This document shows positions 1 to 3,817 of a stretch of DNA of 3,817 nt, piece after piece. Position 1 is the stretch's first letter, and every line of letters starts with the position of its first letter. The notes below the pieces were generated by a model, which saw only the letters and a list, made by a program, of their open reading frames with translations, searched no databases and had not been told where the DNA came from. The stretch is taken from positions 1 to 3,817 of IMG/VR virus record IMGVR_UViG_2671180921_000020; one strand, given 5' to 3'. Both the position numbers and the translations under genes were made by a program. This stretch comes from a virus (lineage: Duplodnaviria; Heunggongvirae; Uroviricota; Caudoviricetes).

Positions 1-267
1 GTGAGTGAGTCAAAATGCCAAATTAATGGCAACAAGATAGAACCGTGCGCGGCGCTGGCACAATCTCTGGAGCAGGATGCTGAATACACGACGCGAAAAG
101 GCCTGCTGATATACAAAATCTATAACCATGAATTAATTCATTCACAAGATCTGATCATGCTTCGGTCTGGTGAATTTTCTAAATCACCGATTCGAGTTTC
201 ATTTTGTCCGTTCTGTGGTAAGAGTCTGAAAACATGGGAAAAGGAGACAACCAGTGGGCAAGATTGA
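1..267 (+). CDS. Hypothetical phage protein, 5'-truncated C-terminal fragment, with a possible Cys-pair (zinc-ribbon-like) motif
   Basis: Open frame runs from base 1 to TGA at 265-267 with no in-frame ATG until about codon 53, so the true start is probably upstream of the window. Contains C-x9-C (KCQINGNKIEPC) and CPFC pairs. The next ORF begins 14 nt before its stop, preceded by an AAGGAG RBS. Confidence 0.55.
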   Translation: MSESKCQINGNKIEPCAALAQSLEQDAEYTTRKGLLIYKIYNHELIHSQDLIMLRSGEFSKSPIRVSFCPFCGKSLKTWEKETTSGQD

Positions 268-670
268 CTATCAGGCACTGCGTGGGGCGGCAGAGCAGGC
301 AATGCATGACGACTGGGGATTTGACGCGGACCTTTTCCATGAGCTGGTAACACCATCGATTGTGCTGGAACTGCTGGATGAACGGGAAAGAAACCAGCAA
401 TACATCAAACGCCGCGACCAGGAGAACGAGGAAATTGCGCTAACGGTAGGGAAGTTGCGCGTTGAGCTTGAGGCAGAAAAACAGCGTGCAAAGGATCTGT
501 TTATGGAAAATGCTCGGCTTAAGTCAGGTATAGCCGGTCTGATACACCTCGGTATTCGATATGCAGATGTTGAGGTCATGAGAATTGCTGGAGATGCCCA
601 GCTTTCTACCCCATGCACTGACAGCATCATAAACAGCATTGCAACAGGCATTCGCATCAAAGGAGAGTGA
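254..670 (+). CDS. Hypothetical phage early protein with coiled-coil segment; possibly Ead/Ea22-like
   Basis: GTG start at 254 lies 7 nt after AAGGAG (241-246). 138-aa ORF with a heptad-like charged segment (ELEAEKQRAKDLFMENARLK). The N-terminus (IDYQALRGAAEQA...W) resembles, from memory, the N-termini of Ead/Ea22-like proteins. Its stop at 668-670 is 1 nt before the next start. Confidence 0.6.
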   Translation: MGKIDYQALRGAAEQAMHDDWGFDADLFHELVTPSIVLELLDERERNQQYIKRRDQENEEIALTVGKLRVELEAEKQRAKDLFMENARLKSGIAGLIHLGIRYADVEVMRIAGDAQLSTPCTDSIINSIATGIRIKGE

Positions 671-671
671 T

Positions 672-1040
672 ATGAGCGCTATAACCAAAGAACGTATCAA
701 ATTATTCATTAAAAATCCGCTTGATAACGGACTTACTCGTGGCGAACAAATGGAACTGGCACGAATTGCACTGGCATCGCTGGAAGCAAAACCAATAGGT
801 GCTTTCCACATTGCAGAACAGCAGGTCGATGGCACAAGTGACTACATCAAGGATGGGGAGTGGCCTATTGATAATGGGACAATTGAAGTATACGCCGCCC
901 CTCCAGCGCCAGTAGTGCCGGAAGAAAAACCAATGCCGAACCCTCTTAGCATGTACGCGGTTGATGCTGTTGCCGCTATTGCAGAGGTGAGAGGATGGAA
1001 CGCCTGCCGTGCAGCCATGCTTAAGGGGGATAAATCATGA
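672..1040 (+). CDS. Hypothetical phage protein (122 aa), Pro-rich linker; possibly related to the Ea22-like family
   Basis: ATG at 672 is preceded by AGGAG (661-665). I chose it over the track's upstream start at 639, which has no RBS and overlaps the preceding gene. Ends with the ATGA overlap at 1037-1040, coupling it to the next gene. Confidence 0.6.
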   Translation: MSAITKERIKLFIKNPLDNGLTRGEQMELARIALASLEAKPIGAFHIAEQQVDGTSDYIKDGEWPIDNGTIEVYAAPPAPVVPEEKPMPNPLSMYAVDAVAAIAEVRGWNACRAAMLKGDKS

Positions 1041-1399
1041 TTAATCGAACCAAACTGGAGCACATCCTCGAGTATGCCAGGCAGCAGAGGCGCTTTGGCC
1101 AGCTTTGTAAAATTCTGCCAGGAGATATGGTTGAAATCGTGGAGATTGCCATGCGTAAGACTGGCAACTCTCCGGTAACTCCGGATGGTTGGATAAGCTG
1201 TAGTGAGCGAATGCCAAACGATAAACAGTATGTTTGGTGTTGGGGGAAGTCTTACGGCTGGACTGAGTGCGATACCTTCGAAGGGTATTACGATTGGTCG
1301 AGAAACAAATGGTGGGCAATTACTGACGATGGGGAAGAACCGGCATCGAAAGTAACCCACTGGATGACGCTATCGGAGCCACCGCAGGAGGTGAAGTGA
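1037..1399 (+). CDS. DUF551-like phage protein
   Basis: 120-aa ORF whose ATG at 1037 overlaps the upstream TGA (ATGA). Trp-rich C-terminal region (GWISCSERMP...YVWCWG...WW...VTHWMTLSEPP) matches the motif I recall for DUF551 phage proteins. AGGAGG (1386-1391) is embedded near its 3' end for the next gene. Confidence 0.6.
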   Translation: MINRTKLEHILEYARQQRRFGQLCKILPGDMVEIVEIAMRKTGNSPVTPDGWISCSERMPNDKQYVWCWGKSYGWTECDTFEGYYDWSRNKWWAITDDGEEPASKVTHWMTLSEPPQEVK

Positions 1400-1683
1400 T
1401 GGACTCCTTCGCGAAATATACGATTATTGACTGGGTAGCCTTCCTTCAGGTTTTGCTCATCTGGTTTTATATGGCTTACAGGAGTGGACAGTGGATTGTC
1501 AGTGTAGCCTGTAGCAAGGGATGGCGTTGGTGGAACCGAAAGAATAAAAAAGCGCTGGCCTTGGATTCGTTTTACGAAGCATTCAATCTTAACAGCCTTC
1601 AGCCTGGTTCTGTCGTTGTAGTCACCACTCAAAGCGGCATGACGATACAAATTCACAAGCCAAAGGAGGAAGGTCGTGGCTAA
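1399..1683 (+). CDS. Small single-pass membrane protein (94 aa), hypothetical
   Basis: ATG at 1399 overlaps the upstream stop (TGATG), 7 nt after AGGAGG. Residues ~8-28 (YTIIDWVAFLQVLLIWFYMAY) form an ~20-residue hydrophobic stretch followed by a basic cluster (RWWNRKNKK), consistent with an N-out/C-in membrane helix. The track start at GTG 1396 is also possible. Confidence 0.55.
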   Translation: MDSFAKYTIIDWVAFLQVLLIWFYMAYRSGQWIVSVACSKGWRWWNRKNKKALALDSFYEAFNLNSLQPGSVVVVTTQSGMTIQIHKPKEEGRG

Positions 1684-1957
1684 CCTGCAACTTGCCGTTA
1701 AAGGTGAATACTTCGATGCCATGATTCGAGGAGAGAAAACGGAAGAGTATCGCCTGTGTAATGACTACTGGAATAAGCGAATTATGTTCCGGGAGTATGA
1801 CCGCCTGATTATCACAAAGGGATATCCGAAGCGCGACGACTCCAGTCGCAGAATTGATGTTCCGTATGGAGGATATGAAGTGAAAACAATCACACCCCCC
1901 CACTTCGGTGATAAGCCGGTAAAGGTATACGCGATAAAGGTGAATATCAATTGCTAA
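1676..1957 (+). CDS. ASCH/PUA-like domain protein (putative), 93 aa
   Basis: GTG at 1676 lies 6 nt after AGGAGG (1664-1669) and overlaps the upstream stop by 8 nt. The N-terminal segment LAVKGEYFDAMIRGEKTEEYR resembles the ASCH-domain beta-strand/GxK motif as I recall it. Ends TAA at 1955-1957, last gene of the coupled chain. Confidence 0.5.
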   Translation: MANLQLAVKGEYFDAMIRGEKTEEYRLCNDYWNKRIMFREYDRLIITKGYPKRDDSSRRIDVPYGGYEVKTITPPHFGDKPVKVYAIKVNINC

Positions 1958-1981
1958 ATTAGTGGCATAGCATAAAGATGC

Positions 1982-2006
1982 TTGCATTAATGAAGTGTGT
2001 ATAATA
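1982..2006 (+). promoter_or_regulatory. Candidate sigma70-type promoter for the AT-rich-island ORF
   Basis: Perfect TATAAT hexamer at 2000-2005, immediately preceded by TGTG. TTGCAT at 1982-1987 is -35-like but only 12 nt upstream, which is a suboptimal spacer. Lies in AT-rich intergenic DNA about 65 nt upstream of the ORF start. Confidence 0.35.
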
Positions 2007-2071
2007 ACACCTAATCAATAGTAAACTACTGAAATAGCAAAAAAAAATGCATATTAAAGAGGATTCGAAAA

Positions 2072-2263
2072 TTGAAAATGTTCATGCAAATAGACAGACG
2101 CATAGATATTAATGGCAATTCATACTTAGTTAGATGCGAAGAGAGGCCTAACGGTGAGTGGCGTGTATATGATATTGACCGTAAGGTCAATATCAGCACC
2201 ATGAACAAAGACACTGCCTTTGATGAATGGAAAGCTGAAGCTAAAAAACAACATAATTCGTAG
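2072..2263 (+). CDS. Small hypothetical protein (61-63 aa) in an AT-rich island; moron-like
   Basis: ORF ending TAG at 2261-2263. Candidate starts are TTG 2072, ATG 2078 and ATG 2084, downstream of AAGAGGA (2057-2063). AT-rich codon usage contrasts with flanking genes. Flanked by a promoter-like element upstream and a hairpin plus T-tract downstream. Confidence 0.5.
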   Translation: MKMFMQIDRRIDINGNSYLVRCEERPNGEWRVYDIDRKVNISTMNKDTAFDEWKAEAKKQHNS

Positions 2264-2305
2264 AATTACAAAAACCCTAACCAATTGATGGATTTCTTTT
2301 ATCTG

Positions 2306-2330
2306 AACTCGCTACGGCGAGTTTTGTTTT
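2306..2330 (+). terminator. Rho-independent terminator candidate
   Basis: Perfect 7-bp stem AACTCGC (2306-2312) / GCGAGTT (2317-2323) with a 4-nt loop TACG, followed by TTGTTTT (2324-2330). Confidence 0.5.
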
Positions 2331-2343
2331 ATGGAGATGATAA

Positions 2344-2511
2344 ATGCACTTCCGAGTTACAGGTGAATGGAATGGAGAACCATTCAACAGAGTTATCGAA
2401 GCAGAGAACATCAATGACTGCTATGACCACTGGATGATATGGGCGCAGATAGCACATGCAGACATAACCAATATTCGAATTGAAGAACTGAAAGAACACC
2501 AAGCCGCCTGA
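2344..2511 (+). CDS. Small hypothetical protein (55 aa), not in the supplied ORF track
   Basis: ATG at 2344 lies 7 nt after GGAG (2333-2336) and directly follows an in-frame TAA. Translation: MHFRVTGEWNGEPFNRVIEAENINDCYDHWMIWAQIAHADITNIRIEELKEHQAA. Stop TGA at 2509-2511 falls inside the loop of the downstream terminator hairpin. Occupies the position immediately upstream of xis. Confidence 0.5.
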   Translation: MHFRVTGEWNGEPFNRVIEAENINDCYDHWMIWAQIAHADITNIRIEELKEHQAA

Positions 2512-2526
2512 TGGCGGCTTTTTCTT
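2501..2526 (+). terminator. Rho-independent terminator immediately upstream of xis/pI
   Basis: 8-bp GC-rich stem AAGCCGCC (2501-2508) / GGCGGCTT (2513-2520) with loop TGAT, followed by a T-rich tract TTTTTCTT (2519-2526). Confidence 0.65.
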
Positions 2527-2565
2527 GCGTGTAATTGCGGAGACTTTGCGATGTACTTGACACTT
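2525..2565 (+). promoter_or_regulatory. pI-type CII-dependent promoter with CII recognition repeats TTGC-N6-TTGC
   Basis: TTGC at 2525-2528 and 2535-2538 separated by 6 nt (GTGTAA) is the canonical lambda CII site architecture. The surrounding sequence matches lambda pI as I recall it. A weak -10 is expected around 2551-2557, so the transcript would start inside xis. Confidence 0.7.
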
Positions 2566-2769
2566 CAGGAGTGGAACGCACGCCAGCGACGCCCAAGAAG
2601 CCTTGAAACAGTTCGTCGATGGGTGCGCGAATGCAGGATATTCCCTCCTCCGGTTAAGGATGGAAGAGAGTATCTGTTCCACGAATCAGCGGTAAAGGTT
2701 GACTTAAATCGACCAGTAACAGGTAGCCTTTTGAAGAGGATCAGAAATGGGAAGAAGGCGAAGTCATGA
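2551..2769 (+). CDS. xis: Excisionase Xis (lambda-type, 72 aa)
   Basis: Protein MYLTLQEWNARQRRPRSLETVRRWVRECRIFPPPVKDGREYLFHESAVKVDLNRPVTGSLLKRIRNGKKAKS matches lambda Xis as I recall it. GGAG RBS sits 8 nt upstream, and the 3' end overlaps the int start by 23 nt as in lambda. Confidence 0.9.
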   Translation: MYLTLQEWNARQRRPRSLETVRRWVRECRIFPPPVKDGREYLFHESAVKVDLNRPVTGSLLKRIRNGKKAKS

Positions 2770-3817
2770 GCGCCGGGATTTACCCCCTAACCTTTATATA
2801 AGAAACAATGGATATTACTGCTACAGGGACCCAAGGACGGGTAAAGAGTTTGGTTTAGGCCGAGACAGGAGGATAGCAATCACTGAAGCAATACAGGCCA
2901 ATATTGAGTTATTTTCAGGACACAAACACAAGCCTCTGACAGCGAGAATCAACAGTGATAATTCTGTTACGTTACATTCATGGCTTGATCGCTACGAAAA
3001 AATCCTCGCCAGCAGAGGAATCAAGCAGAAGACACTCATAAATTACATGAGCAAAATTAAAGCAATAAGGAGGGGGCTGCCTGATGCTCCACTTGAAGAC
3101 ATCACCACAAAAGAAATTGCGGCAATGCTCAATGGATACATAGACGAGGGCAAGGCGGCGTCAGCCAAGTTAATCAGATCAACACTGAGCGATGCATTCC
3201 GAGAGGCAATAGCTGAAGGCCATATAACAACAAACCCGGTCGCTGCCACTCGCGCAGCAAAATCAGAGGTAAGGAGATCAAGACTTACGGCTGACGAATA
3301 CCTGAAAATTTATCAAGCAGCAGAATCATCACCATGTTGGCTCAGACTTGCAATGGAACTGGCTGTTGTTACCGGGCAGCGAGTTGGTAATTTATGCGAA
3401 ATGAAGTGGTCTGATATCGTAGATGGATATCTTTATGTCGAACAAAGCAAAACAGGCGTAAAAATTGCCATCCCTACAACATTGCATGTTGATGCTCTCG
3501 GGATATCAATGAAGGAAACACTTGATAAATGCAAAGAGATTCTTGGTGGAGAAACCATAATTGCATCTACTCGTCGTGAACCGCTTTCATCCGGCACAGT
3601 ATCAAGGTATTTTATGCGCGCACGAAAAGCATCAGGTCTTTCCTTCGAAGGGGATCCGCCTACCTTTCACGAGTTGCGCAGTTTGTCTGCAAGACTCTAT
3701 GAGAAGCAGATAAGCGATAAGTTTGCTCAACATCTTCTCGGGCATAAGTCGGACACCATGGCATCACAGTATCGTGATGACAGAGGCAGGGAGTGGGACA
3801 AAATTGAAATCAAATAA
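2747..3817 (+). CDS. int: Site-specific tyrosine recombinase, lambda integrase Int (356 aa)
   Basis: Full-length ORF starting MGRRRSHERRDLPPNLYIRNNGYYCYRDPRTGKEFGLGRDRR (lambda Int N-terminal arm-binding domain) and ending ...SDTMASQYRDDRGREWDKIEIK. Catalytic residues are at lambda positions (R212 codon 3380-3382, HELR at H308/R311, Tyr342 codon 3770-3772). TAA stop at the last bases of the window. Confidence 0.93.
   Translation: MGRRRSHERRDLPPNLYIRNNGYYCYRDPRTGKEFGLGRDRRIAITEAIQANIELFSGHKHKPLTARINSDNSVTLHSWLDRYEKILASRGIKQKTLINYMSKIKAIRRGLPDAPLEDITTKEIAAMLNGYIDEGKAASAKLIRSTLSDAFREAIAEGHITTNPVAATRAAKSEVRRSRLTADEYLKIYQAAESSPCWLRLAMELAVVTGQRVGNLCEMKWSDIVDGYLYVEQSKTGVKIAIPTTLHVDALGISMKETLDKCKEILGGETIIASTRREPLSSGTVSRYFMRARKASGLSFEGDPPTFHELRSLSARLYEKQISDKFAQHLLGHKSDTMASQYRDDRGREWDKIEIK

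Follow-up and report, generated by a model that had tools for sequence, protein, structure and literature searches.

A probable mosaic insert between the ASCH-like gene and orf55

The stretch of DNA analyzed here, hereafter the window, comprises positions 1 to 3,817 (3,817 nucleotides, nt) of the Caudoviricetes record IMGVR_UViG_2671180921_000020 in IMG/VR and represents the int-proximal end of a lambdoid leftward early operon, read on the + strand. It contains an AT-rich interval with one small open reading frame (ORF), ORF63 (2072..2263, + strand), which runs from TTG at 2072 to TAG at 2263 and encodes 63 amino acids (aa), or 61 aa from the internal ATG at 2078, and which is preceded by a 114-nt untranslated leader with a GC content of 0.28 (1958..2071, +). 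Upstream of the leader is a gene for a 93-aa ASCH-like protein (1676..1957, +; PHROG 625, E 7e-49; weak Pfam ASCH match), which RefSeq labels as an ASCH domain protein. Downstream are orf55 (2344..2511, +), a homolog of lambda lambdap35 and 434 ORF55 according to PHROG 676 (E 2e-39) and the lambda and 434 annotations, followed by xis (2551-2769, +) and int (2747-3817, +; ~97% identical to lambda int). A previous, sequence-only reading had described positions 1958-2340 as a moron-like cassette with its own promoter, small ORF and terminator, located between the accessory operon and xis; the ORF is present as described and the interval does follow the ASCH-like gene, but orf55 intervenes before xis. 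Our analysis indicates that the interval is probably a composite of two pieces, and that its insert is a mosaic replacement with a genuine accessory gene, most likely read from pL.

Alignment of the window with lambda, 434, HK022 and E. coli EC5931 revealed the edges of the insert. Identity to the empty-site relatives HK022 and EC5931 ends at 1948/1949, in the last ASCH-like codons, and restarts at 2290, and in both relatives the same ASCH-like gene directly adjoins tL4 and orf55. The 340-nt segment in between (1950..2289, without assigned strand) replaces ~30 nt of the empty-site phages, namely the last ASCH codons together with the 5′ arm and loop of tL4, and the final two codons and the stop of the ASCH-like gene in the window fall within the replaced segment. 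Compared with these relatives, the insert is extra DNA, in support of this part of the sequence-only reading. The ASCH-like gene was found in 1,457 E. coli genomes, many of which have tL4 and orf55 directly after it, and the span from the ASCH-like gene to orf55 is ~510 bp in many E. coli genomes (e.g., O26:H11 11368), compared with 821 bp with the insert. The insert itself was detected in 27 of 5,426 complete E. coli genomes, and a search of a plasmid collection gave no match.

The GC content falls to 0.325-0.365 across 1901-2400 in 200-nt windows. For 1958-2289 it is 0.337, whereas windows of the same size elsewhere have a mean of 0.472 (sd 0.025, minimum 0.413), so that this segment lies >5 sd below the remainder of the window; the sharp drop in base composition reported previously is real. 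The AT-biased codons reported with it were not found: the GC content at third codon positions (GC3) of ORF63 is 0.42, within the 0.41-0.56 of its neighbors, and rare codons make up 7.9% of ORF63 versus 7.3% of the other genes (Fisher p=0.80). The low GC content of the insert instead stems from the non-coding leader and from the abundance of K, N, D and I in the protein.

The second piece, 2290-2340, is backbone as in lambda, 434 and HK022, and contains a 3′ remnant of tL4, a second hairpin with a T-tract, and the orf55 ribosome-binding site. The GenBank records of HK022 (X51962) and 434 (M60848) assign tL4 to the first hairpin, AATCCTCGC..GCGGGGATTTCTTTTA. The complete hairpin, AATCCTCGC-loop-GCGGGGATT with its T-tract, was not present in the window, where the 3′ arm and T-tract remain (2290..2301, +, from the HK022/434 alignment) and the fold energy of 2264-2304 is merely -3.0 kcal/mol. 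Judging from the sequence, tL4 is disabled in the window because the insert replaced its 5′ arm and loop. The second hairpin, called by a terminator scan (2305..2334 with its T-tract, +; -11.9 kcal/mol), consists of an 8-bp stem at 2305-2324 followed by TTTTGTTTT, and a hairpin differing from it in one stem base lies downstream of tL4 in lambda, 434 and HK022. Among 5,426 complete E. coli genomes, 2,219 matched the query, nearly all over 2289-2340 only. Since the three phages and nearly all of the matching E. coli genomes have this hairpin without the insert, it belongs to the backbone and lies outside the cassette. The hairpin and T-tract noted in the sequence-only reading therefore exist, but not as part of the AT-rich cassette, as backbone identity resumes at 2290.

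ORF63 is a conserved coding gene by sequence comparison

Several comparisons among homologs indicate that ORF63 is a genuine protein-coding gene. A Shine-Dalgarno sequence, AAGAGGA (2057..2063, +), is located 8 nt before the TTG start, and TTG 2072 is in register with the ATG, GTG or TTG starts of the homologs. Between the window and the homolog in phage HK639, the proportions of nonsynonymous and synonymous differences (pN and pS) are 0.21 and 0.80, respectively, with 14, 12 and 34 differences at the three codon positions. The forward frame was the only one to be open in every one of the four lineages compared frame by frame, and the ORF was intact in all seven homologs recovered. We also examined close relatives of the window, of which 30 were collected by BLAST from IMG/VR, RefSeq and one Stx2a phage and one further locus was aligned, giving 31. 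ORF63 was intact in every one of them; the sequence-only reading had named disruption in close relatives as a refuting outcome. Variable sites among these 31 relatives numbered 7 of 192 in ORF63 and ~18 of 114 in the leader, i.e., about four times fewer in the ORF, and the changes in ORF63 were mostly synonymous or conservative.

The window and HK639 also have an open antisense ORF (2026-2214), which is explained by wobble positions that it shares with ORF63. This ORF was rejected, as it contains 2-3 stops in two of the four lineages compared, the homologous loci L040 and L041. A scan of the entire window against Rfam detected no family above noise, which excludes a known small RNA (sRNA) at the region. 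In RefSeq, PGAP leaves the matching position blank in all 27 complete E. coli genomes with the insert; GenBank submitters name the gene hypothetical protein.

Non-ATG starts predominate in the ORF63 family: TTG is used in the window (2072) and at locus L046 (2501), GTG at L041 (4001), L045 (2501) and P0009, and ATG only in HK639 and at L040. A 17-nt sequence, TTCATGCAAATAGACAG, covering codons 4-9 and including a rare ATA, is shared by the window (2081-2097), L040 and L041 (both 4010-4026) and L045 (2510-2526). Its synonymous sites are identical in these four lineages, whose proteins are merely 37-51% identical, but differ in HK639 and L046. Recombination could account for this identity, as could selection acting on the 5′ end of the mRNA.

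Protein family and predicted fold

The ORF63 protein matched PHROG 16329 over its full length (E 3.2e-49; residues 1-63 to profile positions 1-63 of 63), and all six aligned members matched this PHROG. It has no assigned function and includes HK639 gp31 (YP_004934061) and STM14_1438 of Salmonella Typhimurium 14028S. The sequence-only reading did not recognize the protein, and likewise no function library names it. Sixteen residues do not vary among six sequences with 37-97% identity to the window protein: F4, Q6, I7, D8, R9, G15, V20, R21, E24, P26, G28, W30, D34, F50, W53 and A57. A profile search of 1.8 billion representative proteins, together with a word-indexed search, added four further members only, with 37-65% identity and 60-62 aa, all on phage-like contigs. 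The family is small and confined to enterobacterial temperate phages. A 13-residue match in a Hyphomicrobiales metagenome-assembled genome, obtained in a peptide-pattern scan of GTDB genomes, was spurious and was disregarded.

HK639 gp31 (3423-3689 at locus L005) is 67% identical to the window protein over the core and is located in an AT-rich island near the integrase gene (GC 0.38, compared with 0.55-0.58 in the flanks). Its annotated 26-residue N-terminal extension is less conserved than the core, and the core of one relative starts with GTG; from these sequences, the extension is probably not translated and the annotated start wrong. In other lineages, the ORF63 homologs adjoin a DNA polymerase III theta-like gene or unknown genes, or directly precede xis/int. 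At L040 (3759-4183) and L045 (2265-2689), the homolog overlaps the end of the theta-like gene (PF06440) by ATGA or GTGA, which looks like translational coupling in these sequences and might point to what the protein does. Two partial matches, in E. coli OkiPb01684 and MEI1A-0323, represented an IS66 insertion and a decayed prophage remnant and were uninformative on function. The insertion in OkiPb01684 (L043, ~1400-1500) is a copy of the IS66-family element ISEc8 in the ORF63 leader, at the equivalent of window position ~2052; it lies in a decayed torI-type prophage remnant, with the Shine-Dalgarno sequence and the ORF undamaged.

An AlphaFold2 model built from a five-sequence alignment (pLDDT 88, pTM 0.73) contained strands at residues 6-13, 16-24, 30-34 and 40-43 and a C-terminal helix at 49-61. 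The predicted protein is compact and soluble, with four β-strands followed by a single helix. Searches with ORF63 against Pfam, NCBIfam, PADLOC and PDB sequence profiles gave no match; a DsrB match of one family member (E ~0.05-0.07) was treated as noise. Foldseek found nothing at E≤0.001 in the PDB or BFVD. The closest folds were MmoD, TriX and the HicB N-terminal domain, which share 10-13% sequence identity with ORF63 and gave no significant Foldseek match, and ORF63 differs from them in having no partner gene; this likeness is a lead on the mode of action and not evidence of homology. Because the protein has no enzyme-like or DNA-binding signature and its closest folds are small proteins of inhibitor or immunity type, we infer that ORF63 is probably an accessory factor, dispensable for the phage, whose mode of action is to bind another protein.

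The ASCH-like gene, leader and ORF63 are shared with Gifsy-type prophages

In 29 of the 30 relatives collected by BLAST, identity to the window began no later than 1675-1677, where the ASCH-like gene starts, and continued without a break to 2280 or beyond; the ASCH-like gene is thus the constant upstream partner of the AT-rich module. Two types of downstream junction were observed: one is the lambda type, as in the window, and in the other identity ends at 2280. The latter is followed by ~240 nt and then by a LexA box, a dinI homolog, a small ORF with a UUG start, and an irsA homolog, an arrangement known as the LexA-controlled dinI-antirepressor-irsA operon of Gifsy prophages (PMC3121763). 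The UUG-start ORF (82 aa) is probably an antirepressor of the GfoA/GfhA type. The Gifsy-context variant of ORF63 is STM14_1438, which differs from the window protein by one residue and is present on at least 1,000 contigs, and no terminator was found after ORF63 in this context. In E. coli and Salmonella, the block thus occupies either the int-proximal end of the leftward early operon or a position upstream of the dinI-antirepressor operon. Since identity spans the ASCH-like start to 2280 in both contexts, the transferable unit, as defined by these alignments, is the ASCH-like gene plus leader plus ORF63. It does not carry its own terminator: the shared block stops at 2280 and the hairpin beyond it is backbone.

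At locus L020 (5400-6700), the ASCH-ORF63 block is located ~240 nt upstream of the LexA box TACTGTGTTTATATACAGT, and the same arrangement was seen at L010, L012, L016, L018, L021, L028 and L032. CAATTG occurs at both edges of the segment replaced in the window (1948-1953 and 2282-2287), which may be chance or the trace of a recombination joint; the Gifsy-type junction at 2280 precedes the right-hand copy. A published Salmonella prophage transcriptome does not mention the STM14_1438 locus, and a literature search on the ORF63 peptide, PHROG 16329, STM14_1438 and tL4 found nothing relevant.

Leader, candidate promoter and operon setting

The leader is the sole long gap in an otherwise overlapping string of genes. 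Its predicted RNA fold showed no sign of structure (z-score -0.79), and it was not alignable with the leaders of distant homologs. Leaders of 105-124 nt precede the homolog in three other lineages. The homologs at L040 and L045 have no leader, as they overlap the upstream theta-like gene. Within the window leader, an A-run at 2039-2047 varies from 6 to 9 A among the 31 close relatives.

The TATAAT proposed previously as a -10 element is present as an exact hexamer at 2000..2005 (+) and is a candidate promoter element. A consensus promoter scan made no call there, and the hexamer has neither a -35 partner (best 2 of 6 at 15-19 nt spacing) nor a TGn extension. An exact TATAAT appeared in 16% of shuffles of the 114-nt leader (chance P 0.16), and T2000 is replaced by A, giving AATAAT, in 9 of the 31 relatives. 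HK639 has a better candidate than the window upstream of its ORF63 homolog, namely TTGCCG and AATAAT separated by 17 nt.

Upstream of the ASCH-like gene, all on the + strand, are an Ea22-like gene (254-670), an unnamed ORF (672-1040), a DUF551 gene (1037-1399) and a DUF4752 gene (1396-1683), and the genes from 254 to 1957 overlap or lie at most 2 nt apart. In a near-identical prophage of E. coli X14-3, the same strand carries genes for N, Ral, Kil, recombination functions, Ea22 and Lar farther upstream, and it was therefore reasonable for the sequence-only reading to place the region in a pL operon. A strong two-way hairpin terminator is located at 2501..2520 (without assigned strand; fold energy -17.6 kcal/mol), overlapping the orf55 stop codon upstream of xis. 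The stop codon is in its loop, 30 nt before xis, and the hairpin appears to match, by position, the t'I terminator annotated in phage 434; ORF114 of 434 is absent from the window, as it is from lambda. At the left end of the window, positions 1-267 encode an 88-aa ORF with a C-terminal CPFCG zinc-ribbon-like motif, which matches PHROG 4030 and, weakly, Lar-like restriction-alleviation models; the gene immediately before the ASCH-like gene in E. coli X14-3 belongs to the Lar family. The ASCH-like gene of the window contains a run of seven C at 1895-1901 (encoding T-P-P-H), where a Gifsy-type relative has CATCCGC (T-H-P-H), and such a homopolymer could favor frameshifts.

Origin and expression of ORF63

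Taken together, the data probably reflect a mosaic replacement at 1950-2289 that would have brought in the 114-nt leader and ORF63. ORF63, as a delayed-early accessory gene, would then most likely be made mainly from the N-antiterminated pL transcript upon induction or infection; this transcript would include the ASCH-like gene and continue into orf55, xis and int. ORF63 may also have a weak promoter of its own. Several observations weigh against this account. It is the position of ORF63 that points to its expression from pL, and a 114-nt leader with an exact TATAAT in a tightly packed operon fits a separate promoter. The leaders of HK639 and L046 are otherwise diverged and share as their sole conserved island a -10-like G[AG]ATAATAT, 42-43 nt before the start. 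In addition, six of the seven contexts have an intrinsic terminator within 15-45 nt of the stop codon, which fits a gene that usually ends a transcription unit.

These observations lead to the rival that comes closest, a true moron in which ORF63 is transcribed from its own sigma-70 promoter with the -10 element at 2000-2005, transcription stops at the 2305-2324 hairpin, and the gene serves a lysogenic-conversion, exclusion or anti-defense function in the repressed prophage. A moron is extra DNA of different GC content with its own promoter and terminator, which allow expression from a repressed prophage (PMC3594210). The insert does represent extra DNA between genes that adjoin in relatives (340 nt in place of ~30 nt), and its base composition does differ (0.337 versus 0.472), though GC3 and rare codons match the neighbors. 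The exact TATAAT with its long AT-rich leader, the HK639 promoter-like sequence with the -10 region as the only island common to the HK639 and L046 leaders, and the terminators in six of seven contexts also favor it. On the other hand, the TATAAT of the window is at chance level, the 2305-2324 hairpin is recipient backbone, and the mobile block stops at 2280 without a terminator, with none after the gene in the Gifsy-type context. Moreover, the L040 and L045 homologs overlap the upstream theta-like gene and have no leader, and the codon usage of ORF63 is like that of its neighbors. We therefore regard a true moron as unlikely, though it deserves some weight. Of the self-contained unit described in the sequence-only reading, the extra DNA, the atypical GC content and a real small gene stand, while the terminator of its own does not and the promoter evidence is at chance level; on sequence grounds, ORF63 is best called a moron-like accessory gene with a putative promoter, and not a demonstrated self-contained moron.

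A second rival treats the ASCH-like gene and ORF63 as a two-gene functional unit, with ORF63, for example, as partner or regulator of the putative RNA-binding ASCH protein; their joint movement would then be accounted for. The unbroken identity from the ASCH-like start through ORF63 in lambda-type and Gifsy-type relatives alike agrees with such a unit. However, ~98% of the E. coli genomes with the ASCH-like gene have no ORF63, ORF63 homologs elsewhere lie beside unrelated genes, and one recent recombination history would suffice to explain the linkage, as the sequences are 94-98% identical; this rival is very improbable. The remaining view, that the ORF is spurious and the region a non-coding regulatory spacer, sRNA or decayed DNA, has in its favor the blank PGAP annotation, the TTG start and the antisense frame open in the window and HK639, but can hardly be sustained given the strong purifying selection on the forward frame, the antisense stops in L040 and L041, a family that conserves its core residues at 37-97% identity, the confident fold prediction, the Rfam scan without a match, and the fact that the gene had already been called by GenBank submitters and PHROGs.

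Returning to the mosaic replacement with an accessory gene, one may speculate further that ORF63 is the founding member of an uncharacterized family (~62 aa) that inhibits a host function or defense system by direct binding, that a weak -35-independent promoter is active in lysogens of the lineages with AT-rich leaders, and that the gene has spread as a true moron across lambda-like, HK639-like and Gifsy-like prophages of E. coli, Shigella, Salmonella and Enterobacter. We consider this extended scenario a long shot.

ORF63 adds one more uncharacterized accessory gene to the int-proximal variable region of lambdoid prophages, and the gene is very common in Salmonella Gifsy-type prophages. This conserved, well-folded phage protein of 63 aa lacks an annotation in each of the 27 complete E. 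coli genomes in RefSeq that have the gene, and would be of moderate interest if it were a true anti-defense or host-modulating factor. The locus also illustrates that a hairpin beside an AT-rich island can be recipient backbone, a question that empty-site relatives decide.

Comparison with known systems

Existing catalogs list the family as hypothetical protein, and the locus is built in a way typical of lambdoid mosaicism. The morons of HK97 and HK022 (PMC3594210) resemble the insert in being extra DNA between two genes that adjoin in related phages, with a lower GC content and a single small accessory gene, and in having an upstream -10-like element and a downstream terminator-like hairpin. 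In the window, however, the hairpin is recipient backbone, and the mobile block has no terminator of its own and includes the ASCH-like gene; the promoter is putative, and the early operon around the insert would transcribe it in any case.

HK639 gp31, STM14_1438 and ORF63 are all ~62 aa long, AT-rich compared with their flanks and located among early accessory genes. Unlike the window, HK639 carries a terminator of its own and a sequence closer to a promoter, and STM14_1438, unlike ORF63, lies upstream of the Gifsy-type dinI-antirepressor operon and not beside xis/int.

The closest counterpart in lambda is the ea8.5-tL4-orf55 interval. BLASTP of ORF63 against lambda Ea8.5 gave no alignment at E≤100, and the lambda interval differs in that the 5′ arm of tL4 is intact there and missing in the window. 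From 2290 onward, the window is ~97% identical to lambda, and ORF63 holds the position of ea8.5 as the last accessory gene before the tL4 region and orf55.

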